NCBI GenBank assembly: GCA_963701025.1
Contig: OY969557.1
Span: 801,953-865,952, forward strand
DNA: 64,000 nucleotides
Direction: 5' to 3'
From: an uncultured bacterium
GTDB lineage: Bacteria > Patescibacteriota > Minisyncoccia > Phycocordibacterales > PALSA-1337
Part shown: positions 1,300 to 59,645 of the stretch, one piece after another
Layout of the letters: every line of letters begins with the position of its first letter
How positions within the stretch are numbered: position 1 is the first letter of the stretch
The notes under the pieces: model-generated
The model's database searches: none
What the model was told of the DNA's origin: nothing
The model's input: the letters and a program-made list of their open reading frames with translations, nothing else
Made by a program: the position numbers and the translations under genes

Positions 1300-1392
1300 A
1301 GCGTGGAAGGTAGAGGGTAGAGGGTAGAGGGTAGAAATCGCATGTGCGATCGACTACTCTCCACTTTCTACTCTCCACTTTCTCCCTTCTAA
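1300..1392 (+). repeat. G-rich / CT-rich insertion in the 16S gene with (GGTAGAGG)x3 and a central ATCGCA-TG-TGCGAT hairpin
   Basis: Lies between the conserved cccagcttagag and cttctaagctggg helix arms. It shares the GGGTAGAG motif with 57112, 59236 and 59618. Confidence 0.7.
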
Positions 1393-1934
1393 GCTGGGAG
1401 GAAGGTGGGGATGACGCCAAGTCAGCATGGCCCTTTGACGCCTTGGGCTACACACGTGTTACAATCGGCGGGACAACGCGACGCAATGCCGTAAGGCGGA
1501 GCAAACCGTAATAAACCCGCCGCCAGTTCGGATTGAGGTCTGCAACTCGACCTCATGAAGCCGGAATCGCTAGTAATCGCAGGTCAGCTATACTGCGGTG
1601 AATACGTTCTCAAGTCTTGTACTCGGGTCGCCATGCGATCGAGTACGCTAGTTGGTGCAAATCCAACCCGGGCGATCAACAGCGTCCTGAAGCGAAATCA
1701 CAGTCTACTGTCCGTGAGGACTATAGATGAAGGGAGAAAGTAGCATTTCTTAGCTTGAATGCCAGTTATGGCACATATCATAGGTCATCCTGCGAGTACA
1801 TGGAGAAGCCTACTGTCGAAAAAAATGTGATATGTGTATCGTGGTATCGAGATGAGAAAAAAACAGTGTATTCGGTTACCGTGGGAGATCTTGCATAGGC
1901 TCTCGAATTATTTGAGAGTATAATATGAGTAATC

Positions 1935-2525
1935 ATGTTAAATAATATGCAAGAAGTCAGCAGAGTTCGTAGTACCATTAAGGTAGATGGTCGGTTAAAC
2001 CCGAAACTTTTTCTGCCTTTTGGGAAGGAACAAATTCAAAGGGAGAAACTAAACCCTCATTATGTTGGCGGTTTCATTGACGGAGAAGGTTCCTTCTCTG
2101 TCAGTATAGGCAAGCATAAGACTCTTCGACGAGGATATGAAGTTAGGCCGGAGTTTGAAATAGAACTTCGGAAAGACGATCAAGAAATTCTTGAACGTCT
2201 GCTCATAACTATCGGCACCGGAAGAATCTATGATTGCTCGTATGACCGTTACGGATGGTATCCTCATGTGAAGTATAAAATCACTAGTATTTGGGACATG
2301 AAAGAGTGTCTCTTTCCGTTTCTAGATGCATATCCGCTTCAGGCCAAGAAAGCCAAGTCGTATGTGCTATTCAAAGAAATAGTCTCTATGGTCTGTGATA
2401 AGAAGCATTTGAGTGATGCCGGTTTTGAGAGAATAGTGGAACTTCGCGACGAGCTCCGTGCTCTAGGGAAGAAAGCTAAAACTTATCGTGGCATGATAAG
2501 TGAATTCGATAAAAAAATCGAATGA
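1935..2525 (+). CDS. LAGLIDADG homing endonuclease encoded in 16S intron 2
   Basis: GGFIDGEGSF motif. The ORF sits between the exon ends cttgtac (1622) and accgcccgtca (2611). Confidence 0.8.
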   Translation: MLNNMQEVSRVRSTIKVDGRLNPKLFLPFGKEQIQREKLNPHYVGGFIDGEGSFSVSIGKHKTLRRGYEVRPEFEIELRKDDQEILERLLITIGTGRIYDCSYDRYGWYPHVKYKITSIWDMKECLFPFLDAYPLQAKKAKSYVLFKEIVSMVCDKKHLSDAGFERIVELRDELRALGKKAKTYRGMISEFDKKIE

Positions 2526-2932
2526 GCAACCTTTGGAAAACGCGAGGGTGCGGGAAAACCGCTTGCCCCGTGTTGAAGAGAATTATAATGGCAACATTAT
2601 AACACATCAAATACCGCCCGTCAACCCAAGGGAGTCGGAGGTGCCCGAAATCTCGCTTTATGCGGGCCTACGGCAAATTCGATGACAGGGGGTAAGTCGT
2701 AACAAGGCACGGGTAGCGGAAGCTGCTCGTGGAATATTTCAAGTGAAACAACGCTTTTGATCCTTCGGGGTCACTAGCTGAAATGTCGATATGCTCTCCT
2801 AGAGAGCATGAGTTATCGTCGCACAACTCAAAATGGCGACGCTTAGTCTCCGAAGATAGGGGACACACATGGGCACATCATCGATGAGTGCTCATGGGCG
2901 AACGGAACAAAATAAAGAGCGCTATACGAAAG

Positions 2933-2957
2933 AGCCGCCGCGAAGGCGGTTTTTTCG
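2933..2957 (+). terminator. Rho-independent terminator downstream of the 16S gene
   Basis: GC hairpin ccgccgcgaaggcgg followed by tttttt. Confidence 0.55.
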
Positions 2958-3039
2958 CGTAGGAAACGGCTTTAATAGGCCGTTATTTTGTTATACCTTT
3001 GCGTGCTTGTACAATGCGTGATGGTAAATTCTAACCTGA

Positions 3040-4115
3040 AACGCAACACCCCCGTGGTACTGTAGCGGTATACCATTACCAGCTAAATTACACACGAGGA
3101 TGTCGCACAAACAATTTAACAGAGATACTAGAGTAGAGCTAGCGATACTTTTAAGTGCAAGAAAGAGCCAGACTGAATGCGCCAGGATACTTGGCATGCA
3201 GAGAAGCAATGTCTGTCTTGAAATCAGTCGAAACAAAGATCCTGATGGTATATATCGAGGTGGTCATGCGCACAAAAGATATCTGGCAAGAAGAAGACGT
3301 GTAAAAATACTAGAGAGAAAGATCGAAAACGACAGGAAACTACGGCGTCACATCGTCCGCAAATTGAAGCGATTATGGTCACCCGAACAAATTGCAGGAA
3401 GACTGAAAATGATGACCGGAAGAACGATTGTATGTCACGAAACGATCTACACTTTTGTGTACGAGAAAAGACCGGACCTTGTAAAGTATCTGCGGCATCA
3501 GAAGTGCAAGTACCGGAAGAAAAGAGGTTCAAAAGCCCGTATGGAGCTTGCTAGAGCCATGAAAGTGAGAAGGATCGAGGAAAGACCAAAGGAAGTGGAC
3601 GAACGCTCACGCCTCGGAGATTGGGAAGATGATACTGTCATCGGCAAGGAAAGAGTTCAAAGGATCTGGAGCTGTGTTGAAAGAAAGAGCGGATACGCCA
3701 TGGCCGAGAAACTTGAGGTGGTGAGCGCAGAGATCATCAACAAAAAAGCAGTGTCTCGATTCGTAGCGTTGCCAAAATATTTACGAAGGACTCTAACCAG
3801 AGACAACGGAACTGAGGTCAGCGGATATGACAGTTTACTTGAAGAGAAAACCGGACTCGATGTATATCATGCGACCGCGTACCATTCGTGGGAGCGAGGG
3901 ACAAATGAAAACTGGAATGGATTGCTCAGGCAATTCTTTCCTAAAGGCACTTACTTTGCTACCATTACCCCATACCAAGTTCAACGTGCAGTACGAATGT
4001 TGAATGACCGGCCGAGAAAGCGGCTGGGCTACAGAACACCAAGGGAGGTATTCAGAGGGTGTATTGATTCAGATTAGAACTTGAGGATGTGGTATTGACA
4101 CAGGGACTACGGTGT
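3040..4115 (+). mobile_element. IS30-family insertion sequence; ends approximate
   Basis: A single transposase ORF of IS30 type. Weak imperfect inverted similarity between about 3045-3075 and 4084-4112. Confidence 0.5.
3100..4077 (+). CDS. IS30-family DDE transposase
   Basis: N-terminal HTH followed by an rve-like DDE core, with GDWEDDTV (IS30 G-WE-D motif) and the conserved C-terminal region. Confidence 0.8.
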   Translation: MSHKQFNRDTRVELAILLSARKSQTECARILGMQRSNVCLEISRNKDPDGIYRGGHAHKRYLARRRRVKILERKIENDRKLRRHIVRKLKRLWSPEQIAGRLKMMTGRTIVCHETIYTFVYEKRPDLVKYLRHQKCKYRKKRGSKARMELARAMKVRRIEERPKEVDERSRLGDWEDDTVIGKERVQRIWSCVERKSGYAMAEKLEVVSAEIINKKAVSRFVALPKYLRRTLTRDNGTEVSGYDSLLEEKTGLDVYHATAYHSWERGTNENWNGLLRQFFPKGTYFATITPYQVQRAVRMLNDRPRKRLGYRTPREVFRGCIDSD

Positions 4116-4542
4116 GCTATGATGTAGTCTGATTCAAATAAGTGCAGTGTAGTATCGTTCCGGCAAAAAACAGCGGAACGCAACAATCAAAAATCGTAAA
4201 CAACAAATGAACGCGAAATCACGACTGAAATATTCACGTGGGGACAGAGGTCCTTCACTGAAAGGCTTCGTCAGCTGGCTGGTCGGTCCGCCGTGCAGAA
4301 TGCCTCGGGAACGGTACAATCCCTCCTGGAAGACCGAGGTGCCCGGATGCCTTCTCTTTGCCCTTATGATTTACGGGCTACTGAAGTTGTTCTGAGCCAC
4401 CTGACCCTATTGTCTACGGGCGCCGGAGTATGTATCTCTCCGGCGCTTTCCCATTTCCGCTTCCGCTGATTTTTGCCTCTTTTTCATAATTGCTCTATAG
4501 TAGGGAAGTTCGCTTCAATTGCGGTCTGTACAATGTAAATTT

Positions 4543-4624
4543 GGGCATGTGGCGGAATTGGTATACGCGTACGCTTCAGGAGCGTATGGAGCAATCCTTG
4601 GGAGTTCGAGTCTCCCCATGCCCA
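4543..4624 (+). tRNA. tRNA-Leu(CAG)
   Basis: Hand-folded cloverleaf. Acceptor stem GGGCATG/CATGCCC, anticodon stem TACGC/GCGTA with loop TTCAGGA (anticodon CAG), a long variable arm and T-loop GGGAG-TTCGAGT-CTCCC. Confidence 0.75.
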
Positions 4625-4652
4625 CCGTGGGTTCAAGACGCTTTTAAATCAA

Positions 4653-4979
4653 ATGGATCTGACCAACAAAAAGTGCGTGCCGTGCGAAGTGGGCGGTTTG
4701 CCGCTCACCGGTAAACAGATTGTTTCTTACATGAAAGACATACCGAAATGGAAAGCCTCGCCCGACGATACCAAGATCTCGCGATCATTCAAGTTCGACG
4801 ATTTCAAAGAGTCGCTCGCATTCGTGAACAAGGTCGGTGGATTGGCGGAGAAAGAAGGACATCATCCGGACATGCACATCCATTACAACGAAGTGCTGGT
4901 CGAGCTATCGACGCATTCCGTCGGAGGTCTGTCGGAGAACGACTTTATCCTGGCGGCCAAGATAGATCTGATCGCGTAA
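4653..4979 (+). CDS. Pterin-4-alpha-carbinolamine dehydratase (PCD/DCoH)
   Basis: ~108 aa with the EGHHPD signature and overall PCD architecture. Confidence 0.75.
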   Translation: MDLTNKKCVPCEVGGLPLTGKQIVSYMKDIPKWKASPDDTKISRSFKFDDFKESLAFVNKVGGLAEKEGHHPDMHIHYNEVLVELSTHSVGGLSENDFILAAKIDLIA

Positions 4980-5031
4980 GCCATCAGCGCGACTGGCGTT
5001 CCCGGCCTTTTTTTGCTAGATTTCCTTCATT

Positions 5032-5104
5032 GCGCGCATAGCTCAGTTGGTAGAGCACACCACTGATACTGGTGGGGTCCTAGGTTCGAATCCTAGTGCG
5101 CGCA
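5032..5104 (+). tRNA. tRNA-Ile(GAT)
   Basis: Hand-folded cloverleaf. Acceptor stem GCGCGCA/TGCGCGC, anticodon stem CACCA/TGGTG with loop CTGATAC (anticodon GAT) and T-loop CTAGG-TTCGAAT-CCTAG. Confidence 0.85.
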
Positions 5105-5280
5105 CAATAGTTCGATATTGGCATTTTTAGGCACATTGGCGAGCTTCTGATATGGACTTTTGAATTGGTATTGAGCCACAGTTTTGTTTTTGATCGAAAC
5201 GTTCGAAAGTAGCTTTTCCGGCACTCGTTATAGACTATTGTCGCTATTGCAAATTTTGCTTAACATGAGATTATCATATT

Positions 5281-6108: not shown

Positions 6109-6218
6109 TTTTGATATGCGCTAGACGCAAACAACATCCGTGGTGACGGGCGGAGGTCAACGCGCCCTTATCTGCCAAGCGTCTCGCGCACCACCTACCC
6201 TCCAAAGGCGGTAGCGGC

Positions 6219-7836: not shown

Positions 7837-7846
7837 TGGAGGCGCC

Positions 7847-12788: not shown

Positions 12789-13757
12789 TCACTCGCCGCC
12801 GATCACACAGACGATAGTAGGCGGTAGATCGAAGCCTGACGCGGCCGCTTTCATCGCTCCGGCCACGGGTAAAGCGCCGTTCGGCGAAAGGGAAAGGCCC
12901 GCATATTTCAAAGCCATCTCCTCGGCCGCTTGTATGTCGTCGTTCGAGACGATCCAACCATGGCCGCCAGTCTTCTTGATGAGAGGGACAAGGACGGATT
13001 TTCTTATGGCCATTGTATCGACTATGGCATCAGCCGTGGAACGCTCATCCGACCCGTCGTATGGTTCGAATCCGTCGGCGATGGCATGACATGACGATGT
13101 TTGGACGATGTGGATCTGTATGGGCAGTTTTTTTTCGCTGAAATACGCGGCCAGAGCTTGTGCCGTCGTTCCTGAAGAAGTGCCGATGAAAATCGCCGCT
13201 CCTTTTGAGATGAGCTTCGCATCCGTGGCTAATTCCTCTGCCAGCGATTTGTATCCCTCCAAAGCGGTGTCATCGGTCGATTGGCGCAAGCTCCTCACGC
13301 CATCGTTCACAGCCTGGGTCAATGCCTGGAGCGGCCGTTCCTTGACCAGAACGCGGATGTGGCTGCCACTCTCGGGTGACGCCGCCGTCGCCGCGGCGAT
13401 ATCCTTGAGCTTGCCGAGCTTGTGCGGCGCGATATGATGACCGACGAAAATGTCTAGTTCAATAAGTTGATTGCTTGTCGAATCTTGAATGATCTTCGAA
13501 CCATGTCGCTTTAGTTGACTAAAGTGCCTTGAATTGAGCTTCCTCACATACATAGCCGCCGCCAGGGCCGCATTGCCGGAAGACGACAGTGCGAAACGGC
13601 GCTCGCCTTTCCGCGCGTAATGATCGATCATGACCGGTATGGAACGGCCTTTGTGCGAGCCGTATGGGTGCATGTCCTCGCGTTTGAAAAGGAGGCGCGA
13701 GACGCCGACCGCCGCGGCCAGGTCGGGATATGATTCGATGGGTGTGACAGGCTTCAT
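12789..13757 (-). CDS. PLP-dependent fold-type II enzyme (TrpB/ThrC-like)
   Basis: GSHKGR lysine motif and a glycine-rich PLP-phosphate loop (GTSSGTT). Confidence 0.5.
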   Translation of the reverse strand: MKPVTPIESYPDLAAAVGVSRLLFKREDMHPYGSHKGRSIPVMIDHYARKGERRFALSSSGNAALAAAMYVRKLNSRHFSQLKRHGSKIIQDSTSNQLIELDIFVGHHIAPHKLGKLKDIAAATAASPESGSHIRVLVKERPLQALTQAVNDGVRSLRQSTDDTALEGYKSLAEELATDAKLISKGAAIFIGTSSGTTAQALAAYFSEKKLPIQIHIVQTSSCHAIADGFEPYDGSDERSTADAIVDTMAIRKSVLVPLIKKTGGHGWIVSNDDIQAAEEMALKYAGLSLSPNGALPVAGAMKAAASGFDLPPTIVCVIGGE

Positions 13758-13805
13758 GTCCGTGGAGATATTGCCATACTAACCCATTTCCTATATCATG
13801 GAAAG

Positions 13806-14000
13806 ATGATCCAAAAGAATATGAAAAAAGAAGACTCCCTGTGCGTCTGTCCCGAATGCAAGAACACAGTCGACATTTCCCGCTATCCGAACATCGCCCC
13901 CGGCATGGTCATAGAATGCGATCATTGCGGCATGACCCTCTCGGTCAAGGAGATCGCGAATGCGGAGATCAAGACGGAGATCGTCGATGAAGGTAAGTAG
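13806..14000 (+). CDS. Small zinc-ribbon protein, LysW-like
   Basis: CPEC...17 aa...CDHC zinc ribbon in 64 aa. Confidence 0.35.
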   Translation: MIQKNMKKEDSLCVCPECKNTVDISRYPNIAPGMVIECDHCGMTLSVKEIANAEIKTEIVDEGK

Positions 14001-15429
14001 CGCACTCCTCTATCATCCCTCGGAAGCCGTGTGAGCCTAGGAAGGCGATGACGTCTCTACGCTTTGCTTGCGACTGGAGAAAGATGACAAGTTTCTTGTC
14101 ATCTTCTACATAGACGGTATGAGGATGCGTCGCGCCTATCGTCGCCGCCAATTCATCGCCCTCAATCGGCGGGGTCGGTTCATCGTCCGCTTTTTTCAGC
14201 TTTGTCAGCCGGGGTATGACGACGATGTCGGCGTCCGCGAAAGCGCCATCGTATTTAGCCGCAGACTCGCGGCGCCTGCCGCCGATATTCGGCTCGAAGA
14301 CGACGATGATCTTGCCGTCGTATATATTCCGCAATTCTTTCAGCACGGAAGAGGCTTTTTCCGGCGAATGGGCGATGTCGTCGAGGACGGTGACGCCGGC
14401 ATTCAAAATGGAACCGTCCAGCCGCTTCTCGAGGCGGCGCTTCAATCCCTTGAACGATGCCATGGCCGCGACGATCTTTTCCGACGCGATGCCGATCTCG
14501 TGCGCCATAGCGAAACAGCCCGTGATATTCTCGGCTTGGAACGAACCCAATAGGGGTGATCTCACTTTGAATGTCTGTCCTTGGTGGACGATGCCGAACT
14601 CAAGACCATCTTTCGATTGATGGACATCGCGATAGGAATAGTCGGCACCGGAAGAACCATACCAGACGATCTTTTTCGAAGAGCCGGCGAGCGTTCGGAC
14701 GACACCCGGCTGATCTTTATTGGCTACGATAAGGCCGGAGTTGGGGACGATGAAGCCGGAGTCAGGTATGCCCGCGACTAATTTCTTGAAAGCGTCGAAA
14801 TAGTCCGCTTCGGTCGGATAGAGATCGGCATGATCCCAGGATACCGCCGATAGGAGCAGGTGCGTAGGCCGGTAATGGAAGAACTTGGCCCGCAGGTCGG
14901 TGGGCGAGCTTTTGTATTCGTCGCCTTCGAAGACGCTCCAATCGCTCCTGGAAAGCCGAGCTGGAGCTTCCGTCGACAGCGCTACGCCGCCGAACATGTA
15001 TGACGGGTCTAGTCCGGCCTCGGAGAGGATATGCGAAAGGAGGGCCGATTGGGAGGTCTTTCCCCATGTGCCGGTGCAGACGATGGAATGCTTTCTGACG
15101 AAATATCGGCCGATGGCTTCGGCGAACGAGCACGCCGGTATGCCGAACTGTTCGGCCGCGGCGGTCTCCGGGTTCTGCCTGCCGGAAGCCGTGCCGATGA
15201 CCACGAGATCCGGAGCGCCGCCAGCCACCATCTTTTCCGGATGCCAGCCGGCGTAAAAATCGATGCCGGCCCTCTCCAGCTCGGTCGAAACCGGCGGGAA
15301 GAAGCCCTTGTCGGAGCCGGTCACCTTGACGCCGGCCTTGTGGAAGGCGATGGCCAAGGCGCTGGTGGCCACGCCGGATATGCCGATGACGTGAATATGG
15401 CGCGGTAGTTTCGGCAGGCTTGCGTTCAT
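13969..15429 (-). CDS. murC: UDP-N-acetylmuramate--L-alanine ligase (MurC/Mpl family)
   Basis: HIHVIGISGVATSALA N-terminus, TGTWGKTS P-loop and the Mur ligase domains. Confidence 0.75.
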   Translation of the reverse strand: MNASLPKLPRHIHVIGISGVATSALAIAFHKAGVKVTGSDKGFFPPVSTELERAGIDFYAGWHPEKMVAGGAPDLVVIGTASGRQNPETAAAEQFGIPACSFAEAIGRYFVRKHSIVCTGTWGKTSQSALLSHILSEAGLDPSYMFGGVALSTEAPARLSRSDWSVFEGDEYKSSPTDLRAKFFHYRPTHLLLSAVSWDHADLYPTEADYFDAFKKLVAGIPDSGFIVPNSGLIVANKDQPGVVRTLAGSSKKIVWYGSSGADYSYRDVHQSKDGLEFGIVHQGQTFKVRSPLLGSFQAENITGCFAMAHEIGIASEKIVAAMASFKGLKRRLEKRLDGSILNAGVTVLDDIAHSPEKASSVLKELRNIYDGKIIVVFEPNIGGRRRESAAKYDGAFADADIVVIPRLTKLKKADDEPTPPIEGDELAATIGATHPHTVYVEDDKKLVIFLQSQAKRRDVIAFLGSHGFRGMIEECATYLHRRSPS

Positions 15430-17888: not shown

Positions 17889-18001
17889 GTCGACAGGTTA
17901 GAGATAGTTCATTTCCAACCCGCTGTGGCGAAGAGCCCAGCACCAGTAAATCCGAGCATGCCTCTATGAGGCTCGCTCAAAACAAGAAAGGACACGCTAT
18001 T

Positions 18002-18634
18002 ATGAATAGCACGTTCGCAATGAGTCAGGGTGCAGGTCAAAAATTGGAATTCGCTTTCCAACGCAACGATGGGAGTACAGCCGATTTGGATTGGCTCTCC
18101 ACTGGCGACAACCTCAAGTCAGTTATGCTACTCGCCCGGGGCGAAGCGGAATTGATCCTCAAGGTCAAGCCTGCTCCCGAGCCGGGGCCGGTTATCGACT
18201 CCATCATCCGTGTGGACCGCTCGATTCGTCCCACGTATCCCGATTGGGTTAAGACTGTGATGCATCCGGAGCTGGAGCCTCTTGGTCCGGCCGAGTATGA
18301 CATCGCGGAAGTCGAGCAATGGCTCCACGAAGGCCAGAAGGACGGGAAGTGGATCGAAGGCAACAATATCTACGCCCATCTCAAGGAGATCGACACTCTG
18401 AAGACCTGCCTCGGACTGCGTGACCTTGAAGAGATCCAAAAGAAAGGCATTGCCTTCTTCCGGAAACACTTTGGCGGCAAAGCAGTCTTTGGTTGGTCCG
18501 GTGTCGTGCGGCTCCGCCATGGCGACCTCTGCGTCCCGTACCTCTGCGGGTTCGGTGACAGAGTGGTCCTCTACTGGAGCTGGCTCGGCCTCGGCTGGGA
18601 CGGCGACTACCCGGCTCTCCGCCACGCAAGTTAG
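18002..18634 (+). CDS. DGR target (variable) protein with a C-terminal variable region; alternative start 17966
   Basis: The last ~42 codons (18505-18629) form the variable region matching the template repeat. AAAGGA RBS before 18002. Confidence 0.7.
   Translation: MNSTFAMSQGAGQKLEFAFQRNDGSTADLDWLSTGDNLKSVMLLARGEAELILKVKPAPEPGPVIDSIIRVDRSIRPTYPDWVKTVMHPELEPLGPAEYDIAEVEQWLHEGQKDGKWIEGNNIYAHLKEIDTLKTCLGLRDLEEIQKKGIAFFRKHFGGKAVFGWSGVVRLRHGDLCVPYLCGFGDRVVLYWSWLGLGWDGDYPALRHAS
18505..18629 (+). repeat. DGR variable region (VR)
   Basis: 125 nt aligned to 19013-19137 with 21 mismatches, every one at a position where the other copy has A. Confidence 0.85.
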
Positions 18635-18732
18635 CGCTTAGGCCTTGGTCACTTTGCACTCTGTGCGCTTTGACCTTTGCCCTAAAAATTTGGTGGTCTA
18701 ACCACCCGGCATGGAATGAGCCGCTGACATTC

Positions 18733-18763
18733 AAAACCCACATGACGAAATCATGTGGGTTTT
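18733..18763 (+). terminator. Perfect hairpin AAAACCCACATGA-cgaaa-TCATGTGGGTTTT downstream of the VR; terminator and/or DGR-associated stem-loop
   Basis: 13-bp perfect stem with U-run, ~100 nt after the target-gene stop. Confidence 0.55.
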
Positions 18764-19012
18764 CGGCATATGGTAAACTATGTGCGGTAGTAGGCGAATC
18801 ATGCGGGCGGTCAAGGCTTCCCGCGGCCGAATCCAGTATCCATGAGCTGAGAACGAGAGCGGTTACGGCTTCTCTCGGAGGGCTTATGCAGACACTTCAA
18901 AAAATGAAGCTACTTGGTGCAGAATGTTATGGCATTATGATGCCGAATACGATTCAATCTCGAGATCGCGTAAGCTTCAAGGGATGGTGACATGGAAGAC
19001 ATTTTGCATATA

Positions 19013-19137
19013 CGTGCGGAACCGCCATGGCAACCTCAACGTCCCGTACCTCTACGAGAACGGTGACAAAGTGGTCCTCAACTGGAACTGGCTCGACAAC
19101 GACTGGAACAGCAACAACCCGGCTCTCCGCCACGCAA
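19013..19137 (+). repeat. DGR template repeat (TR)
   Basis: Adenine-rich and full of AAC codons in the target frame. Differs from the VR only at A positions. The overlapping 86-aa ORF is a translation artefact. Confidence 0.85.
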
Positions 19138-19143
19138 TTCGTA

Positions 19144-19497
19144 TCATTTCTCTCCTGTTTTTGCGGGAGAGTTTTGCTTTGTAAGCTGCCCGCTCCAGCC
19201 GCCGAGATTGGTGCCGATCTCCTCGAGCTTCACCGATAATGCGATATATTTCTTGTCGTCGAGTGACTTGGATTCCCAAAGTATCATAAGTAACACTTTA
19301 AGTGTGTCGAGCTTTCGTATGGCTAGGCGGACATAGGGCGATTTCTCTTCTCTGGAGAGGAATGTGGCCGCGGCGATAGCTTCTATGATTTCCACGAATA
19401 GGCAATCTATCCGCAGTCCTATAGAATATCTGTGTTCCTTCGGCAATTCCATATAATACCCATGCCACATCAGATACGCATCTTTGATCTTGCGCAT
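19144..19497 (-). CDS. avd: DGR accessory variability determinant Avd (four-helix-bundle family)
   Basis: The C-terminus LEEIGTNLGGWSGQL resembles BPP-1 Avd EVGRILGSWIARV. ~117 aa. The ORF-track TTG start at 19506 is replaced by the ATG at 19497. Confidence 0.65.
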   Translation of the reverse strand: MRKIKDAYLMWHGYYMELPKEHRYSIGLRIDCLFVEIIEAIAAATFLSREEKSPYVRLAIRKLDTLKVLLMILWESKSLDDKKYIALSVKLEEIGTNLGGWSGQLTKQNSPAKTGEK

Positions 19498-19514
19498 GAC
19501 CGGCAAAATTCCGT

Positions 19515-19525
19515 GGGGGGGGGGG
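19515..19525. repeat. G11 homopolymer between the divergent avd and RT starts
   Basis: ccgtGGGGGGGGGGGcttt seen directly. Confidence 0.9.
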
Positions 19526-19535
19526 CTTTCATAGC

Positions 19536-20530
19536 TTGCGACGGATCCGGTTTGCTCATATGTACGATGATATCATCTCCCTTGAAAATCTGCTCGAAGC
19601 ATGGAGAGAATTCGTAAGAGGGAAACGAAAAAGAAAAGACGTCCAAAATTTCGAGCGGGATCTGATGGCGAATATCATTTCGCTCCATCGAGACTTGGCA
19701 GCAATGACTTATGAGCATTTGGAATATGAATTCTTCAGGATTTATGATCCGAAGCTGCGAGACATCCATAAAGCCAGCGTCAGAGATCGTGTGCTTCACC
19801 GGGCCTTGCATAGAAAATTGTATCCATTCTTTGAGCGCACATTCATAGCAGATTCTTTTTCATGCCGGCTCGATAAAGGGACTCACAAAGCCTTAGATCA
19901 ATTCCGATCGTTCTCGTATAAAACGTCTTGCAACCGCACCAAGACGGCATGGATTTTGAAATGCGACATTAGGAAATTCTTTGCTTCAATAGATCAGACC
20001 GTTCTCATGGAGATCTTATCGATCTATATCCAAGACGAGAATGTCCTGGCTCTGGTGTCGAAGGTCGTCTCGAGCTTTTCTTCGACAGCAAAAGGGATTG
20101 GCTTGCCATTGGGCAATCTCACCTCTCAACTTCTCGTGAATATATATATGAATGAGTTCGATCAGTTCATGAAGCATAAGCTTAGGCGAAATATTATATC
20201 CGCTATGCCGATGATTTTGTCATCCTTTCAATAGATAGAGATTGGCTCTGCAACCTTATTCCAAAGATCAGCGATTTTCTCGAGACCAGGCTTAAGCTCA
20301 AGCTTCATCCGAACAAAATCAGCATTGAAACGTTCGCTTCAGGCGTTGATTTCCTCGGCTGGGTGCATTTTCCCGATCACAGGGTGCTCCGGACCAAGAC
20401 TAAACAGAGGATGTTCAGGAATATAAAAATAAAACAGGCCAAGTCTGAAACAATCCAGTCCTATCTCGGCCTACTGAGTCACGGAAACACCAAAAAGCTG
20501 CAGAATATCATAACCACTTCAATCTCCTGA
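19536..20530 (+). CDS. DGR reverse transcriptase, interrupted by a single -1 frameshift at about 20184-20189
   Basis: N-terminal LENLLEAWREFVRGKRKRKDVQNFERDL and motif IGLPLGNLTSQLLVNIYMNEFD are in frame 0 (19536-20189). AKYYIRYADDFVIL (YxDD) and KLKLHPNKISI continue in frame 2 (20186-20530). Restoring one G in aggcg joins them. Confidence 0.8.
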
Positions 20531-37937: not shown

Positions 37938-39799
37938 AGATATTATATCTTGCCAACATACGTCTGCCGACGCAAAGGGCCCACGGTGTGCAGATCATGG
38001 AAACCTGCGCCGCCATGGCCGCGGCAGGCCATGAGGTCACGCTCGCCGTATCCTCTTGGAAATCTGACGATGAGGACGCAATATTTTCTTACTATAATCT
38101 GCCAAAAAGCTTCGCTATAGTAAAGGTTGCCGGAGTCGGGCTCGTATCGTGGGGTAGAGTCGGCTTCTTCGCGAGATCTTTGCTTTTTTCCCTGAATGTG
38201 CGCAGAACGATTGATACCGGTCTATATGACGCAGTCTACACCCGTGATGAGTCGCTCGTGCGGCGCGGCTTTTTCTATGAGATCCATGATGTGCGCAGGG
38301 GTTCGTTTCAGCGTCATGCTCTCGCTCGTGCGGCTGGCATCGTGGCCATCACTCGCGGATTGGCGGACTATTGCCGTTCGGCAGGCGTCGGAGAGGATAG
38401 GCTGATAGTAGCCCCCGGCGGCGTCGATATTTCGAAATTCGATGTTCCGGAAGGTAAGGAAGCATGCCGTGCCAAGCTCGGCCTGCCTTCAGACGGCAAG
38501 ATCGTCCTCTATCTGGGTCATTTATTCTCTTGGAAAGGAGCCAGTATGTTAACGGAGGCCGCCTCATTGATCTCCGGTAAAGTGTCATTTCTATTTGTAG
38601 GTGGCACGGATTCAGATGTCTCGTTATTCAACGGCAGATTTGGCTCTGATCATCGCATCAAGCTCGTTGGCTATCAGCCGCGCTCCCGTGTACCGTATTA
38701 TATGCGCGCCGCCGACGTCTTGGTCTTGCCGAATAGCGGGAGAGAGGCCGTCTCGCGCCTCTATACGTCGCCGATGAAGATTTTCGAATACATGGCCAGC
38801 GGCACACCCATCGTCGCTTCCGACCTGCCCTCCTTGCGGGAGATACTGGACGGATCGAATGCCGTCTTGGCGGCGCCGGATGATCCCAAAGATCTCGCCA
38901 GAAACATAACCAGACTTATCGGCGATCCTGGTCTGGCCGGAAAGATATCGGAAAAAGCGAGGACGGACGTAGAACGATACACATGGTCGGCTCGAGTCTC
39001 GAGCATTATCGCTCTAATGAAAGACCGTCGTCCGGCGCTCAAAGACACCGCTTTCTATAATAAGGCGAGCGATACATATTCGAGTCGGCGTTATCCGGAG
39101 AAAAGCACTGATTACAATCATTTCTTCTTCAAGCGGCGCTTGGATGTAGTGATCGATATCTTGGAAGACGTCGTACCGCGGATGCAGAACCCTTCGCTTC
39201 TCGAGGTCGGCTGTGCCGATGGGGTGGTCTTGAGACGGGTCTTCGAGAAATTCGGCATGGGCATATCTTCATATGCTGGCATAGACATCGCTCCGCGCAT
39301 GATAGAGGTCGCCCATAAAAAGCATGCCGGTACCCCGCTTAGATTCTCGATACGCGATCCGAAAAAATGTTTCGGCGGCAAGGGTGGGAGCAGTTGGGAT
39401 ATCCTGATCGAGATCGGTGTGCTCAACTATGCCGACTTTGATCTGGAAATAGAGTGCGTAGAGCGGTCTCTTTCTGTTGCAGGTTACTACATCTGTTCCG
39501 TTGCCGGGAATGGCTCGCTTTGGGACCGCCTAGTCAGGGTCGACAAAAGATTCGAGAATTTCATGTCATATGCGGAATATGAAACGAAGATCCGTCGGTC
39601 ATTTGATATCGTGCGAGCGTATCCAGTCGGCCTTTATCTGCCCAAACTTTGGCGCGTACCAGCCATAGCGAGAATTATGCAACCGATATCTGAATCATGT
39701 ATTAGGCCGTTCTTACCGGGGTTGTTCCATGAGAAAGTCTATCTCCTGAAACGGTTTTCTCGTCCATCTCTCATATCTGTATCCAGCCATCGGGGATGA
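37934..39799 (+). CDS. Bifunctional GT4 glycosyltransferase / SAM methyltransferase fusion
   Basis: N-terminal GT4 region and C-terminal LLEVGCADGVV methyltransferase motif. Confidence 0.6.
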   Translation: MKILYLANIRLPTQRAHGVQIMETCAAMAAAGHEVTLAVSSWKSDDEDAIFSYYNLPKSFAIVKVAGVGLVSWGRVGFFARSLLFSLNVRRTIDTGLYDAVYTRDESLVRRGFFYEIHDVRRGSFQRHALARAAGIVAITRGLADYCRSAGVGEDRLIVAPGGVDISKFDVPEGKEACRAKLGLPSDGKIVLYLGHLFSWKGASMLTEAASLISGKVSFLFVGGTDSDVSLFNGRFGSDHRIKLVGYQPRSRVPYYMRAADVLVLPNSGREAVSRLYTSPMKIFEYMASGTPIVASDLPSLREILDGSNAVLAAPDDPKDLARNITRLIGDPGLAGKISEKARTDVERYTWSARVSSIIALMKDRRPALKDTAFYNKASDTYSSRRYPEKSTDYNHFFFKRRLDVVIDILEDVVPRMQNPSLLEVGCADGVVLRRVFEKFGMGISSYAGIDIAPRMIEVAHKKHAGTPLRFSIRDPKKCFGGKGGSSWDILIEIGVLNYADFDLEIECVERSLSVAGYYICSVAGNGSLWDRLVRVDKRFENFMSYAEYETKIRRSFDIVRAYPVGLYLPKLWRVPAIARIMQPISESCIRPFLPGLFHEKVYLLKRFSRPSLISVSSHRG

Positions 39800-49542: not shown

Positions 49543-49735
49543 CGTTAAGCCCCTCTCATTCATTGCGCCGCCGGAAGGCCGCGAGTATAATGGACGCAGA
49601 TTGCTCCTAGTGACGGCGAGCGGCTGTACTCACATTATATTTAGACATATTATTTGGAGCTCACACCCGCTCGCCATCATTCGGCGCAATCGCGCGTGAG
49701 ACAGGATGGCAGACCAGGCATCGGGGCAGATTTCG

Positions 49736-50785
49736 ATGAAGATACAAGAAAACATATCGCTGGCCCAATACACGACATTCAAGATCGGGGGACCCGCCCG
49801 CTTTTTTTGTTCGGTGACTTCGAAAGAGGAAGTGCGCCAAGCCGTCTCGTTCGCCAAGAAAAGAGGTTTGCCTTTCTTCGTTTTAGGCGGCGGTTCTAAT
49901 ATCCTTGTCTCCGACAATGGATTCCCCGGCTTGGTCATAAAAGTAGAGATCATGGGAATAAGGGAGGAAGGAATAGAGAATAAAGGGGAAAGAAAAGAGG
50001 ATGTCGACGAGCACGTTCTCATTTCCGTTGGGGCAGGCGAGATGTGGGATTCATTCGTCGAATATACGGTCTCGCGCGGCCTGTCCGGCCTTGAGAATCT
50101 TTCCGCCATACCGGGCAGTGTCGGGGCGGCTCCCATACAGAATATCGGCGCTTACGGAGCTGAAGCCCGGCAGTTTATATCATCAGTCCGCGCTTTTGAC
50201 GCGAGAAGGATGGCCTTTGTCGAATTATCGAACAAAGAGTGTGAGTTCGCCTACCGCGACAGCATGTTCAAGCGAAAGAAGGGCAGATACATCGTCACTA
50301 GGGTAGATTTCAGATTGAAGAAGGGCGGTCCGGTGAACATAGTATACAATGATCTGCGGGATCATTTCGCCTCGAGAGGCATAGCCGTTCCGACGCCGGA
50401 CGAAGTCCGCCGGGCAGTCATCGACATACGCTGGAGCAAGTTGCCGGACTGGAAGCTCTGGGGCACCGCGGGATCATTCTTCAAGAATCCGGTCGTTTCC
50501 GCCCGCAAGTACGCGTCGCTCAAGAAGAGATATCCGGGCCTGCCCGGCTTTCCCGAGCCGCGAGGCAAAGTCAAAATACCTTTAGGCTGGATACTGGATA
50601 ATGTCTGTCACGCCAGAGGCATGCGCAAAGGCGGCGTCGGCACATATGAAAAGCAAGCGTTAGTTTTCGTCGCCCGGCCCGGCGCCGCCTCTGCTGAGGT
50701 CGTCGAACTGGCGCAAGAGCTCATGAAAAAAGTCAAAGACGCTACCGGCATCACCATCGAAGGCGAAGTGGAGTGGGTCAATTAG
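49736..50785 (+). CDS. murB: UDP-N-acetylenolpyruvoylglucosamine reductase
   Basis: FAD-binding FFVLGGGSNIL and the MurB C-terminal domain. Confidence 0.7.
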   Translation: MKIQENISLAQYTTFKIGGPARFFCSVTSKEEVRQAVSFAKKRGLPFFVLGGGSNILVSDNGFPGLVIKVEIMGIREEGIENKGERKEDVDEHVLISVGAGEMWDSFVEYTVSRGLSGLENLSAIPGSVGAAPIQNIGAYGAEARQFISSVRAFDARRMAFVELSNKECEFAYRDSMFKRKKGRYIVTRVDFRLKKGGPVNIVYNDLRDHFASRGIAVPTPDEVRRAVIDIRWSKLPDWKLWGTAGSFFKNPVVSARKYASLKKRYPGLPGFPEPRGKVKIPLGWILDNVCHARGMRKGGVGTYEKQALVFVARPGAASAEVVELAQELMKKVKDATGITIEGEVEWVN

Positions 50786-54246: not shown

Positions 54247-54308
54247 ACAAAAAGAGAACCTGTTCAAAAGTTGAGTAAACAACAGATTTAGCATATGATG
54301 AGCCGACT

Positions 54309-55283: not shown

Positions 55284-55402
55284 ACATATGCTATCCTCTC
55301 CACCGTGTACGTTTCTCGTCACGTACGCGTTAGCAATTTTAATGAACGAGAGCTCCGCTAGCGCGTTACGCATAGTGATTCGTTGCGGGTAATACAAAGA
55401 AA

Positions 55403-55654
55403 ATGTCAAAGAGACTTTTCGTAGGCAGCATTGCCTGGGGCACGACCGACGCCACCCTGAAGACACACTTCGAACAGGCCGGTCAGGTTGAGTCAGCCGC
55501 CGTTATCATCGACAAGATGTCGGGCCGCTCCAAGGGCTTCGGCTTCGTGGAGATGGCGAATGACGCCGACGCGCAGACCGCGATCGACAAGCTCAATGGT
55601 TCGGATCTCGATGGTCGCAAGATCGTCGTCTCCGAGGCCCGACCGAAGCAGTAA
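55403..55654 (+). CDS. RRM-type RNA-binding protein
   Basis: RNP-2 LFVGSI and RNP-1 KGFGFVEM. Confidence 0.75.
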   Translation: MSKRLFVGSIAWGTTDATLKTHFEQAGQVESAAVIIDKMSGRSKGFGFVEMANDADAQTAIDKLNGSDLDGRKIVVSEARPKQ

Positions 55655-55679
55655 TACTGTCACGGCCCGCTTACGCAGA

Positions 55680-55700
55680 AACGCCCCATACGGGGCGTTT
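55680..55700 (+). terminator. Rho-independent terminator after the RRM gene
   Basis: AACGCCCC-atac-GGGGCGTT followed by a T-rich tail. Confidence 0.5.
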
Positions 55701-55720
55701 CTGTCGTCACATTTCCGTTC

Positions 55721-56421
55721 CTAATTGATATTTCTCCACCACTCCGATACGGGCGCCTTCTTTATGATCTCCATGGCGCGATCGATGGAATCGGTGATCT
55801 CGAATATCTTCATGTCACGGGCGTCTATGGCCGCGTAGGTTTCGAGCATGTTCTTTTCCATGAAAGCTTTCAGAGGGTTCCAGTAACGCGAATCCATCAG
55901 GATGATCGGCACGCGCGGGATCTTGCCCGTCTGGATGAGGGTGAGGATGCTGAAGAGCTCGTCAAAAGTTCCGAAACCGCCGGGAAAGAAGACGTACGCC
56001 TCCGCCGCGAAAGTAAGCATGGTCTTCCGTGAAAAGAAATAAGCGAACTTGAGTGAATGGGTGACATAGGCGTTCGTGGTGTGCTCGTGCGGCAAGCTGA
56101 TGTTGAGGCCGAGGGAGACGCCGCCCGCGTCGTATGCGCCTTTGTTAGCTGCCTCCATGGTGCCCGGTCCGCCGCCGGTCACCACGGCATAGCCGAGATC
56201 GCGGACGACTCTCTGGCCTAGCTCGTAAGCTTTGGCATAGGCGGCTCCGTCCCGAGGGGCGAGCGACGAGCCGAAGACGCTGACCGACTTCGGATATTTC
56301 GCCAGAAAATCGAATCCCTCTGCGAACTCCCGGCTGATGCGATCGAGATGTTCTCCGACTTCCCGCGCGTGGATGTCGGATCGGATGAGAGGGCCGATGT
56401 CGTTCTTCTTTTGGGAATTCA
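55721..56421 (-). CDS. LOG-family protein (cytokinin riboside 5'-monophosphate phosphoribohydrolase-like)
   Basis: TGGGPGTMEA and PGGFGTFDEL. The ORF-track start at 56680 was rejected for the internal Met at 56421. Confidence 0.7.
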
Positions 56422-56449
56422 TGCCGATAGTGTAACACACGAAGTATGA

Positions 56450-57727
<1,278 letters not shown>

Positions 57728-57736
57728 TCAGCTTTT

Positions 57737-57997
57737 TCATTTGAGTCGTGCGATATTTCTGTCCACATAGTCGAGTTTCCTGTCGTACATCCATAGGTAT
57801 CTTTTTCCGGAAAGGACTTTCCGCGTGAGACCTCGTTTTTCGAATTTCCTCAGAATATATAGGGCGGTTGATCGAGGAAGTTTTGCTTGACTGGCGATCG
57901 CTGAAACGCTTCTGGCCATTTTAAGGCGCAGAAGGACGTCAAGAAAGGCACTCTCTTTTGGTGACAGATCCAATATATTTCGTAGAGGTGGAAGCAT
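57737..57997 (-). CDS. Small winged-helix transcriptional regulator
   Basis: 86-aa HTH pattern (LPRSTALYILRKFEKRGLTRK). Confidence 0.45.
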   Translation of the reverse strand: MLPPLRNILDLSPKESAFLDVLLRLKMARSVSAIASQAKLPRSTALYILRKFEKRGLTRKVLSGKRYLWMYDRKLDYVDRNIARLK

Positions 57998-57998
57998 T

Positions 57999-58023
57999 GG
58001 GGGGAGGGGGGAGAGAGAGGAGA
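57999..58023. repeat. Homopurine tract GGGGGGAGGGGGGGAGAGAGAGGAGAC
   Basis: Seen directly; it encodes the LPPLPP start of the minus-strand regulator. Confidence 0.8.
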
Positions 58024-58044
58024 CATATCATTGTATCACTTCCC

Positions 58045-58089
58045 AAAAGTGACAAGAAAAGTTGCCACTTTTCCCAGGCATAGCAAAGG
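58045..58089. repeat. Palindromic dispersed repeat, copy 3 (intergenic, ~50 bp upstream of the wHTH regulator start)
   Basis: AAAAGTGACAAGAAAAGTTGCCACTTTTC then ccaggcatagcaaagg. Confidence 0.7.
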
Positions 58090-58186
58090 TATGTCGGTCC
58101 TCCGCCAGGCAATATGGATGAGAAAAATACGCCCACAAAAAACCGCACTAGACCCAAGCCAGCCGCCTAGACACTTTCTTATTTGA

Positions 58187-59215
58187 CTAGATCTCCCTCG
58201 GCTTATACTCCTCCGGCGCGCGGCGGAGCCACCATTCCAATTGTTCGAGCGTCAGCAATCCTTCCTGGGCGCCGATGAATTGAGCCACTGACATGGGATT
58301 TACAGGAGCCCAGATCAAAGCCTCTAAAGGGGCTTTGCCCATGGCTAGGGCCGAAACGAAAGTGGACGCCCAAGCGTCGCCGCAGCCTGTGCGTTCGAAG
58401 GCCGGCCGCGGATCGGGATACATGGGTATATGGTATGAGCGCTCGCCGTCAAAGAAATACGCGCCGTCGGTATTGTCGGTGATGGCCACCATCTTAGGCC
58501 CGTAGGCGGCGATCTTCTTCATCATCTCTTTGACGCTACCGGCCCGGCCTACGGCTGGATCCGTATTTTTGCTCGGATCGATCTTCAGTATCCTCTCCGC
58601 CTCCTCGACATTGACCACGAAGAGGTCGGTCCTAGCGTATATTCGCTTCAATTCTTCGAATCCTAATTGCATCTGGAAAGTGCCGGGCTGGAAAGCCAGC
58701 TTGACTTCCGGGTTCCGCTCAAGATAATCGGCTATCATCATGTGATACGGGAATGTATTGGCGGCCAGGGAAGTGAGGTATATCCATTTCGGCGGCGGGA
58801 ACTCGGGCAGGCGATAGTCATAATCGGCATGCTTTACCAATATGGTCCTATCCACGTCATACCACAGGACGAAATGATAATTGGTCGGCTTGTTCTTGTG
58901 TGTCTTGACGAAAGAGGTCACGACTGCGTTCCTCTGCAGTTCCGCCATACAATCTCTGCCGTTCTGGTCGTCGCCGATGTTGGCCACGAGAGCCGTGCGC
59001 AAGCCGAGCCTCGCCCCGGCCACGGCGGCATTGGCCGCATTGCCCACGGCCTTAATCACCTTGACGTATTCAAATGGTATCTTATCGCCGAAAGGCATGC
59101 ATATCTCGCAGTCGCTCATATTGACTTTGCAATGGACATCGGCTTTTTCCAAGCGGATGAAAGCGTCGGTGGTGATATCGCCTATGGCCAGGATGTCAAT
59201 TTGTCTTTTGAGCAT
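58187..59215 (-). CDS. PfkB-family carbohydrate kinase
   Basis: Ribokinase-like fold with C-terminal TGCGDAWASTF (GAGD-type) motif. Confidence 0.65.
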   Translation of the reverse strand: MLKRQIDILAIGDITTDAFIRLEKADVHCKVNMSDCEICMPFGDKIPFEYVKVIKAVGNAANAAVAGARLGLRTALVANIGDDQNGRDCMAELQRNAVVTSFVKTHKNKPTNYHFVLWYDVDRTILVKHADYDYRLPEFPPPKWIYLTSLAANTFPYHMMIADYLERNPEVKLAFQPGTFQMQLGFEELKRIYARTDLFVVNVEEAERILKIDPSKNTDPAVGRAGSVKEMMKKIAAYGPKMVAITDNTDGAYFFDGERSYHIPMYPDPRPAFERTGCGDAWASTFVSALAMGKAPLEALIWAPVNPMSVAQFIGAQEGLLTLEQLEWWLRRAPEEYKPREI

Positions 59216-59615
59216 GAGAATGAGGGTATTGAGAAGGGTAGAGGGTAGAGGGTAGAGGACTAACTTTTAATTTTCTCAGAAGGCCGCATAGCATTTTCTG
59301 GATTTCAGTAGTCAATGACTCTACCTTAGATAAATCAATTTTCGGATAGATCATTTTTGAAATGATTGTCTGGGTCTCCAATTCTGCTGAAGAGCCATCC
59401 GCGATGCTTAGGAATTGAATGTATTCTTTGCGATTCTTCCTCTTATATCCCTCTGCGATATTTGAAGGTATAGACACGGAAGACCTTCTCATCTGGGAAA
59501 CTATGCCGTAAAGCTCAGATTTCGGGAACGATTCAGTTGCCTGGTATACCTCCTTGACCAGTTCAATCGATTTCTGCCAAACTGTTAATTCTTTGAACGA
59601 TTGCATATGTGCCAT
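59196..59615 (-). CDS. Four-helix-bundle protein (23S rRNA intervening-sequence protein family)
   Basis: LTVWQKSIELVKEVYQATESFPKSELYGIVSQMRRSSVSIPSNIAEGY family signature. The C-terminal tail is encoded by the GGGTAGAG repeat. Confidence 0.75.
   Translation of the reverse strand: MAHMQSFKELTVWQKSIELVKEVYQATESFPKSELYGIVSQMRRSSVSIPSNIAEGYKRKNRKEYIQFLSIADGSSAELETQTIISKMIYPKIDLSKVESLTTEIQKMLCGLLRKLKVSPLPSTLYPSQYPHSHAQKTN
59236..59258. repeat. (GGGTAGAG)x3 repeat at the 3' end of the four-helix-bundle gene
   Basis: gggtagagggtagagggtagagg. Encodes PSTLYPSQYP in the minus-strand ORF. Confidence 0.8.
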
Positions 59616-59617
59616 TT

Positions 59618-59645
59618 CTATACCCTATACCCTATACCCTAAAAC
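59618..59645. repeat. (CTATACCC)x3 repeat just upstream of the four-helix-bundle gene start; a near inverted partner of 59236-59258
   Basis: ctataccctataccctataccctaaaac. Confidence 0.75.

Follow-up and report, generated by a model that had tools for sequence, protein, structure and literature searches.

Inverted heptamer arrays around a four-helix-bundle gene and same-unit hairpins in 16S rRNA and tgt: a candidate family of intervening-sequence-type elements in a Patescibacteriota genome

We begin by considering a short G-rich repeat in a stretch of 64,000 nucleotides from an uncultured bacterium of the Patescibacteriota (assembly GCA_963701025.1, contig OY969557.1, positions 801,953 to 865,952), called the window here, with positions counted from its first letter. 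The window starts inside a 16S rRNA gene that is interrupted by introns carrying LAGLIDADG open reading frames (ORFs), and the nearest named relatives, judged by the Tgt protein encoded in the window, are Paceibacterota, Parcubacteria and Taylorbacteria. Three loci in the window share a GGGTAGA-like unit: the 16S gene, the tgt gene, and the two flanks of a gene for a four-helix-bundle (4HB) protein that stands between pfkB and fba. An earlier note on this DNA had placed the repeat at four sites, and reading the sequence finds all four where the note had put them. The note had also given the repeat a period of eight. This has to be corrected, as Tandem Repeats Finder (TRF), with which the arrays of period 7 are called, gives seven, and the octamer GGGTAGAG consists of one heptamer and the G that opens the following unit. 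The repeat unit is the heptamer GGGTAGA or GGGTATA. Folds are scored by their energy in kcal/mol together with z. The features that carry the repeat are the following:

59216-59646, minus strand: the whole inserted unit (array, gene, array and short spacers), delimited by comparison with empty and filled sites in relatives
59618-59641, minus strand: 5' array of this unit, G-rich on the sense strand, (GGGTATA)x3.4 (TRF: CTATACC, 3.4 copies, 100%)
59196-59615, minus strand: gene for the 4HB protein, 139 aa (PF05635/TIGR02436 profile match)
59235-59258, minus strand: 3' array of this unit, C-rich on the sense strand, (TCTACCC)x3.4 (TRF: AGGGTAG, 3.4 copies, 100%)
57101-57152, plus strand: ORF-less in-frame hairpin inside tgt (from the sequence, the fold, and an ORF that stays open)
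1297-1393, plus strand: ORF-less hairpin at the tip of 16S helix 40 (from the Rfam SSU alignment, TRF, the fold and the inverted repeat)

The ORF-bearing unit, which we call the cassette, is limited by the pfkB start codon on one side and by the promoter-like 'gttataat' of fba on the other. Its 5' array ends 2 nt ahead of the 4HB start codon. Its 3' array, which reads (GGGTAGA)x3.4 on the plus strand, is traversed by the ORF, and the earlier note was right that the left copy supplies the C-terminal tail of the protein: the 4HB domain occupies about aa 4-117, and the 22 aa past it are encoded by the read-through of this array. The tail is probably incidental, because most homologs end 0-6 residues after the domain. 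There is a 20-nt overlap between the ORF and the start of pfkB. When the two flanks were said to carry the same motif, the inverted layout was described correctly and the identity of the motif was not. On the minus strand the right flank reads (GGGTATA)n and the left flank is GGGTAGA, so the two are complementary at six of seven positions per unit.

The 4HB protein belongs to PF05635 (122.4 bits against a cutoff of 33.8, E 1.2e-35, over the whole domain of ~110 aa) and to TIGR02436 (122.4 bits, cutoff 24, E 9e-36), and it scores 142.9 bits with NF008911, for which the cutoff is 137. Proteins of known structure that resemble it are PDB 2gsc (Xanthomonas XCC0516, E 7e-22) and 2rld. Both entries were deposited with five chains; a pentameric four-helix-bundle assembly is suggested for the window protein. 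A weak kinship is seen with Avd, a protein of diversity-generating retroelements (DGRs), through PF22296 (E 2e-6), NF033474 (E 4e-5) and PHROG 3206, 'Avd protein of DGR' (E 1.7e-8).

Relatives that have the gene order LOG-tgt-pfkB(-)-fba(+) in common with the window can be compared at the pfkB/fba site (loci are given L numbers). The site is empty in L082 and L085, where the starts of pfkB and fba are 38 and 17 nt apart and neither repeat nor gene is found. In L083, which has the closest Tgt (76%), and in L004, a cassette stands at the same point as in the window; the one in L004 is the syntenic ortholog of the window cassette and has the units GGGTGCA/GGGTACA. Other occupants are an ORF-less palindrome of ~190 nt in L087 (5650-5835) and unrelated ORFs in L081, while the contig of L084 stops at this site within an AGGATTC-type array. 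Gene and arrays form one inserted unit, because the empty sites of the relatives are without any repeats. To judge from this comparison, the arrays are gained and lost together with the 4HB gene, and the pfkB/fba site is a hot spot.

Two further observations concern these loci and the window. Locus L082 has a second, divergent 4HB gene (13756-14212). GAAGCAG-type heptamers stand upstream of it, and on the downstream side, where the gene overlaps a NUDIX gene at its 3' end, there is no complementary array, so the downstream arm can be lost. In the window, a small helix-turn-helix (TrmB/MarR-like) ORF (57737-57997, minus strand) and a 35-nt polypurine tract with two copies of GGGGGGA (57990-58025) stand between tgt and pfkB. 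Because the ends of tgt and pfkB overlap in L081-L084, this segment of ~460 bp (57737-58186) is a separate insertion.

The link between the repeat and the 4HB gene, which the earlier note had proposed, is real and general across the protein family. We examine 80 homolog loci (81 loci in the counts) from contigs of one genome per species, which come from Patescibacteria, Bacteroidota, Acidobacteriota, Planctomycetota, Elusimicrobiota, Omnitrophota, Cyanobacteria, Verrucomicrobiota and others. When the flanks are read, the gene is preceded by a degenerate tandem array and followed by the complement of that array at nearly every 4HB locus; the arrays typically have 3-5 units and abut the start codon. 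A 5-mer that is present at least twice upstream, with its reverse complement present at least twice downstream, is found at 70 of the 81 4HB loci, compared with 52 of 261 random positions. A strict test asks for the same non-low-complexity 5-mer recurring at a lag of 7 or 8 on both sides of the gene, and it is passed by 38 of the 81 loci, compared with none of 526 random positions and with one of 215 other genes in the same loci. The layout also has a polarity. The G-C skew is positive upstream and negative downstream at 64/81 loci, and the reverse pattern is seen at 0/81.

The period and the wording of the unit depend on the lineage. Most loci are best described by a period of 7; a period of 8 is found in a minority, among Bacteroidota and Opitutales. 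The heptamers include GGGTNNA, TAGCGTN, TAGCCAN, AGGCART, GGGACTA and GGGGTTA, and the octamers GTTGACRA, CACAAAGG and TCAAGGAT. In 52 of 74 loci the 4HB gene is co-oriented with both of its neighbours, with median gaps of 56 and 62 nt. Given this co-orientation, and short gaps that consist largely of the arrays, the gene looks promoterless and operon-embedded.

We turn our attention to the two hairpins that carry no ORF. In the Rfam SSU alignment, 97 nt of the window 16S gene replace the 3-nt loop of the hairpin at model positions 1149-1172, which is helix 40 of the E. coli 16S secondary structure. A G-array at 1297-1335 (TAGAGGG, 5.6 copies) is followed by an inner palindrome, UCGCAUGUGCGA, at about 1338-1349 and by a C/U-rich arm at 1354-1397 that pairs with the G-array. 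Folding this insertion with wobble pairs, a check that the earlier note had recommended, gives a stable hairpin with several G-U pairs (-70.7 kcal/mol, z -8.5; opposite strand -64.6). The 16S element may be either an expansion segment or an IVS (intervening sequence) that is excised. The loci retrieved from relatives contain no 16S sequence. In the Candidate Phyla Radiation (CPR), ORFs for 23S_rRNA_IVP are found in insertions of both 16S and 23S genes, and many short insertions are ORF-less (Tsurumaki et al. 2024).

The same 16S gene has two further insertions with LAGLIDADG-type ORFs, at 61-651 and 1935-2525 (regions 1-651 and 1620-2610). The second of them, near E. coli position ~1400, has a match to the group-II D1-D4 family of Rfam at 1918-2030, and it agrees with the 16IS9 site reported for CPR.

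In tgt, the ORF (56480-57727) remains open across the hairpin. The G-units GGGCATA GGGTAGA GGGTAGA (57104-57124) are followed by the C-units CTATGCC CTAAACC CTACACC (57126-57146), which is the order of G-array and C-array seen in the 4HB flanks, with nothing between them; the TRF call here is 57110-57125, AGGGTAG x2.3. The hairpin arms of 11 nt that had been pointed out, TTAGGGCATAG/CTATGCCCTAA, are present. The figure of about 17 added residues holds for the length of the hairpin (51-52 nt, 17 codons) but not for the net gain of the protein, since the alignment of orthologs gives +11 aa relative to the closest ortholog lacking the hairpin (P0002/L083) and +8 aa relative to the Tgt of Z. mobilis. 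The hairpin folds with -32.9 kcal/mol (z -4.7) and the opposite strand with -32.8.

When 120 CPR homologs of Tgt are aligned, between 0 and ~100 residues are inserted just after 'WAERCLxxHKK'; the position, in a surface loop of CPR Tgt, is a hot spot for such hairpins. The closest relatives (L081-L083) have no hairpin there. L084 carries a G-array of GGGTAGA type and then a C-array, with 45 nt of loop between them. The arrays are of GTAAGGA type in L085 (-37.8 kcal/mol) and of GGTATAG type in L086, and L087 has a complex palindrome of 198 nt. The tgt of L004 contains a different palindrome (5090-5215, minus strand) with the 17-bp stem GGCCGGCGGAAGCAAAG. The type of unit does not follow the Tgt phylogeny, and the tgt site has therefore been hit or remodelled repeatedly. 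As L087 and L004 demonstrate, the tgt and pfkB/fba sites attract several kinds of hairpin.

A separate observation concerns GAAATGGCA, which stands directly after the G-array both in the window cassette (59600-59620) and in the tgt hairpin of L084. It is the context of the 4HB start codon, and it may have been left behind by a deleted ORF or may be there by chance.

The next question is "could the motif be random low-complexity sequence?", which the earlier note had named as the outcome that would speak against its proposal. This was looked at within the window, and the shuffles exclude chance. The sequence GGGTAGAGGGTAGAG, with at most 3 mismatches, has 11 matches compared with 0.79 expected (0/100 shuffles). 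Arrays of the form (GGGNNNN)nGGG with n of at least 2 number 6 in 64 kb compared with 0.33 expected, and five of the six are at the three named loci. Beyond the named sites no further copies of the repeat are found in the window, and an isolated 8-mer at 38152 fits chance expectation. A chance or low-complexity origin of the motif is ruled out.

The unit of a cassette also recurs elsewhere in its own genome. In L004, a solo array of the cassette type lies 2.6 kb from the cassette, and across the 6-kb loci there are 7 arrays of the locus's own unit away from the gene, compared with 0.52 when the unit of another locus is used. The ortholog in Xanthomonas campestris, XCC0516, sits between accB and accC. 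It has CGGGAAT x4.4 on its upstream and CCCATTC x4.3 on its downstream side, which are GGGAATC-type arrays. GGGAATC is known from about 185 sites per Xanthomonas genome, of which 70-75 are convergent pairs; they were read as G-quadruplexes (G4s) with no function assigned, and no 4HB/S23 gene is mentioned (Rehm et al. 2015, PMC4692102). In Anabaena sp. CCY 9910 the 4HB gene stands between COX3 and COX1, flanked by TAGGGGTG arrays that recur four more times in 12 kb, and on a plasmid-like contig of Nostoc GGGTGTA arrays are found on both sides of the gene.

Arrays of this kind are also met with no gene between them. In metagenomes (GGGTAGA)3G is common, with at least 120 stretches. Adjacent metagenomic pairs of arrays of opposite type that enclose no ORF run G>C 18 times and C>G twice. 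The G>C order is also the one seen at the gene, and this agreement speaks for a shared origin or mechanism. The loops of ORF-less hairpins hold inner palindromes.

Combining these observations, we think it probable, with some reserve, that the IVS-type cassette and the ORF-less hairpins belong to one genome-specific family. The three elements of the window, one with an ORF and two without, would then belong to a widespread class of hairpins, whose arms would be inverted tandem-heptamer arrays, G-rich first and C-rich second. The ORF-bearing member would be a promoterless PF05635/TIGR02436 gene, a relative of Avd, inserted between pfkB and fba. In a read-through transcript its arrays would pair as a stem of ~21 bp that closes off the ORF, and this stem would serve as a substrate of RNase III, releasing the element from the transcript. 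The ORF-less members would be continuous hairpins of the same genome-specific unit, in the loop of 16S helix 40 and in Tgt, where the copy would be tolerated in frame in a surface loop.

The RNase III stem is proposed because the IVS of Coxiella burnetii is cut at its repeat and because the fold of the cassette pairs the arrays: in the RNA fold of the whole cassette, the two arrays are paired at the closing stem in both the minimum free energy and the centroid structure. We infer that such pairing occurs at the RNA level and that RNase III cleavage follows from it, and likewise that the hairpins spread and that the 4HB protein has a role in the spread. The earlier note's term 'IVS-like cassette' is supported both as architecture, by the parallel with the Coxiella IVS, and as an insertion unit, by the empty and filled sites. 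Its further idea, a mobile cassette that seeds rRNA and protein genes, agrees with the presence of hairpins of the same unit in 16S and tgt; derivation of these hairpins from the cassette is plausible and unproven, as 22 ORF-less loops have no remnant of the gene.

A number of observations weigh against this reading, and we collect them here. The ORF-bearing cassette lies outside the rRNA genes, between pfkB and fba, and none of 40 homolog loci scanned lies inside an rRNA gene, so that the 4HB homolog loci are rejected as rRNA-gene residents. When the search starts from the motif, a single locus (L142) out of the 80 metagenomic (GGGTAGA)3 loci among the matches listed adjoins a 4HB gene; there the array lies on the sense strand, 13 nt ahead of the gene. 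This ratio fits a system with one gene and many arrays, as in Xanthomonas, and it equally fits arrays that are independent of the gene. A permissive search with hidden Markov models finds a 4HB remnant in 0 of 22 ORF-less loops, and the idea that the ORF-less hairpins are decayed cassettes is rejected on this count, its one hint being the GAAATGGCA that the window cassette shares with the L084 tgt hairpin.

Compared with the empty sites, there is no target-site duplication at the cassette or tgt junctions, and no near-identical cassette copies are found; the copies share the heptamer unit only, and the 4HB homologs are at most 63% identical. A miniature inverted-repeat transposable element, or another transposon-derived element, for which such duplications and copies are the criteria, is rejected. 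Profile scans of the 4HB protein find PF05635 and bAvd only, and no nuclease, transposase or recombinase domain. Among about 20 ORFs scanned in the partly annotated window there is no gene for RNase III.

The case for pairing in the RNA and for a match between protein and repeat is affected as well. The fold of the whole cassette has a z of only -1.96. The two arms, each internally perfect, mismatch once per heptamer, which therefore speaks for slippage within the arms rather than for selection for pairing. The duplex energy of the flanks favours the sense strand at 40 and the antisense strand at 41 of the 81 loci; lacking a strand bias, it does not demonstrate selection at the RNA level, and strand-specific pairing through G-U asymmetry is set aside, as this split is uninformative. 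The identity of the 4HB proteins does not track the type of unit, being barely higher within a unit type than between types, and coevolution of protein and unit is dropped for that reason.

The rival that best survives these data, and which we judge rather unlikely, is that the arrays are slippage microsatellites. Hairpins would grow by intrastrand template switching, 4HB genes would land or survive in their loops, and the 16S and tgt hairpins would be independent products of a genome-wide slippage bias and not derivatives of the cassette. Several of the facts given above are what such a process would leave behind: each window array is a perfect tandem (100%) while the arms differ; (GGGTAGA)3 occurs in at least 120 metagenomic stretches, and 1/80 of the loci among the matches listed adjoins a 4HB gene; the ORF-less hairpins have inner palindromes of their own and no 4HB remnant; protein identity is independent of the unit; other kinds of hairpin occupy the tgt site in L004 and L087; and the number of copies differs between Coxiella strains. 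Slippage leaves unexplained, however, that 38 of 81 4HB genes, against 1 of 215 other genes, stand exactly between inverted arrays, that the orientation is G>C (64:0 around the gene and 18:2 in the ORF-less pairs), and that the empty syntenic sites are wholly without arrays.

It is a good deal less probable that the arrays are iterated binding sites of a pentameric 4HB protein, used in autoregulation or in the assembly of a nucleoprotein, with the dispersed arrays as a regulon and not as mobile copies. Avd, the characterised relative of the 4HB protein, binds nucleic acid and reverse transcriptase (RT), the entries of its homologs 2gsc and 2rld each contain five chains, and the arrays abut the start codon. 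The arrays also have typically 3-5 units, and in Xanthomonas four are preferred (PMC4692102). These points have to be set against a 4HB sequence that does not covary with the unit, and against the presence of arrays within rRNA and within coding sequence, places in which a regulatory site would have little purpose. In the least probable of the three, the G-rich arrays would be G-quadruplexes with a regulatory or insulating role, which has been suggested for the Xanthomonas repeat GGGAATC and the Nostoc repeat GGGGA(C/T)T, and the 4HB gene would be just one neighbour. This reading draws on G4 formation in vitro, on a preference for four units and on enrichment between co-oriented ORFs (Rehm et al. 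2015, PMC4692102), as well as on the GGG tracts 4 nt apart in the window units. It has against it that many flank units have no G-run (AGGCAAT, TAGCGTC, TAGCCAA, GTTGACAA, CACAAAGG and GACAGAT of Coxiella), that each window array has three GGG tracts where at least four consecutive G3 tracts are called for, and that complementary pairs of arrays favour a duplex over a G4.

The preferred reading, a genome-specific family of cassette and hairpins, allows an extension that we offer tentatively and regard as possible, though on the doubtful side. The 4HB protein, which is Avd-like and probably pentameric, could be the dedicated trans-acting partner of heptamer- and octamer-array hairpins throughout the bacteria. 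The ORF-bearing copy would be the 'master' of ORF-less dependants that number in the dozens to hundreds per genome. Such a system would be REPIN-RAYT-like and run by a non-enzymatic, nucleic-acid-binding bundle, perhaps with the help of the RNase III of the host or of an RT. If true, it would unite the ORF-containing rRNA IVSs, the short tandemly repeated repetitive (STRR) sequences of cyanobacteria, the 'G4' repeats of Xanthomonas and the in-frame hairpins of CPR.

The family PF05635/TIGR02436 is very large (thousands of matches were scored) and so far without an assigned function, and the rRNA IVSs, the STRR sequences and the GGGAATC repeats have been unexplained for decades. If inverted arrays nearly always stand on both sides of the gene, with the unit of the dispersed repeat of its genome, three puzzles become one testable system. 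The elements would also be a source of odd 16S and protein insertions in CPR that can disturb rRNA-based surveys and gene calling. Neither the layout rule for the whole family nor the connection with orphan heptamer repeats seems to have been described; the one publication found that links the 4HB/S23/IVP family to heptamer repeats is the Coxiella IVS paper. In a repeat-based screen (PMC10910872), '23S rRNA IVP' is among the proteins with a CRISPR-association score. Flanking heptamer arrays may be behind this score, with no CRISPR function involved. The 4HB protein has no match in PADLOC, and membership in a defence system is dropped.

Elsewhere, the window contains a DGR with an Avd of its own:

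17966-20234: the whole DGR
17966-18634: DGR target gene, with the variable repeat (VR) at 18505-18629
19013-19137: template repeat (TR), 84% identical to the VR, every difference being a TR adenine changed in the VR
19144-19506, minus strand: DGR avd (NF033474, E 9e-15)
19536-20234: DGR RT ORF of only 232 aa (RVT_1, E 1e-10), which may be truncated or frameshifted

There are no heptamer arrays beside this avd. A link between the cassette and the DGR is rejected, the DGR avd being array-less and 40 kb away. The cassette gene is likewise rejected as a DGR avd, since it scores 23.9 bits with NF033474 against a cutoff of 80. The window also has an intergenic hairpin at 49594-49697, which has 29-nt arms that are 83% complementary and are not heptamer-based. 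It stands just upstream of an ORF of 359 aa (49706-50785) and matches no Rfam family; the 151-nt stretch around it (49550-49700) folds with -61 kcal/mol (z -4.9).

How do these elements compare with systems already described? The ORF-containing 23S IVS of Leptospira is said to go back to work by Ralph and McClelland in 1993. The terminal stem of the Leptospira and Salmonella IVSs is a substrate of RNase III, and cleavage there frees the element from the host RNA. In Coxiella burnetii, the IVS in helix 45 of the 23S rRNA carries an S23p ORF of the 4HB family, with 2-3 tandem GACAGAT heptamers, variable in number between strains, just before it, and has a 28-bp terminal stem that RNase III cuts on the 5' side where the first repeat begins (Warrier et al. 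2016, PMC4990558). The cassette resembles the ORF-containing 23S IVSs in its protein family, PF05635 being named after them, and in an ORF within terminal inverted repeats that form a stem; it resembles the Coxiella IVS in its tandem heptamers directly before the ORF, and the window 16S hairpin has the helix-tip position of an rRNA IVS. The ORF-bearing copy of the window, in contrast, stands between protein genes, and the copy in rRNA (16S helix 40) has no ORF. Excision by RNase III, with the rRNA left fragmented and not religated, was demonstrated for Coxiella (PMC4990558); for the window elements it is a proposal. The literature on rRNA IVSs does not state a family-wide heptamer-array rule.

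The Xanthomonas GGGAATC and Nostoc GGGGA(C/T)T repeats, the latter among the cyanobacterial STRR sequences, are likewise tandem G-rich heptamers, in 2-26 units, that are dispersed, mostly intergenic and often in convergent inverted pairs (PMC4692102), and the Xanthomonas 4HB gene is flanked by exactly GGGAATC. The window differs in its unit, GGGTAGA/GGGTATA, and in having copies in rRNA and in coding sequence as well. With the Avd of DGRs, the cassette protein shares what is, by profile similarity, a homologous four-helix-bundle fold; its gene has no adjacent RT, TR or VR and has pfkB and fba as neighbours instead. Rickettsia palindromic elements, reportedly described by Ogata and colleagues in 2000, are said to be palindromes of 100-150 bp, of a single-copy type and with no associated gene. 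They reportedly resemble the tgt hairpin in being short hairpin repeats that stand in frame at protein surface loops, and also in RNA genes, with function kept; the window arms differ in being heptamer arrays tied to the 4HB gene.

The last comparison is with repetitive extragenic palindromes (REP) and the REPIN-RAYT system. RAYT is an HUH/Y1 transposase, whereas the 4HB protein has no catalytic domain and gives no match to an HUH/Y1 (IS200/IS605-like) transposase. The window repeats are tandem heptamer arrays and not single palindromes, and their mobility is only inferred. What the two have in common is a single gene with a short repeat in inverted copies on either side, gene-less hairpins of that repeat dispersed in the genome, and a repeat that is specific to that genome; inverted flanks together with the same unit dispersed in the same genome are found in the window, L004, Xanthomonas and Anabaena.

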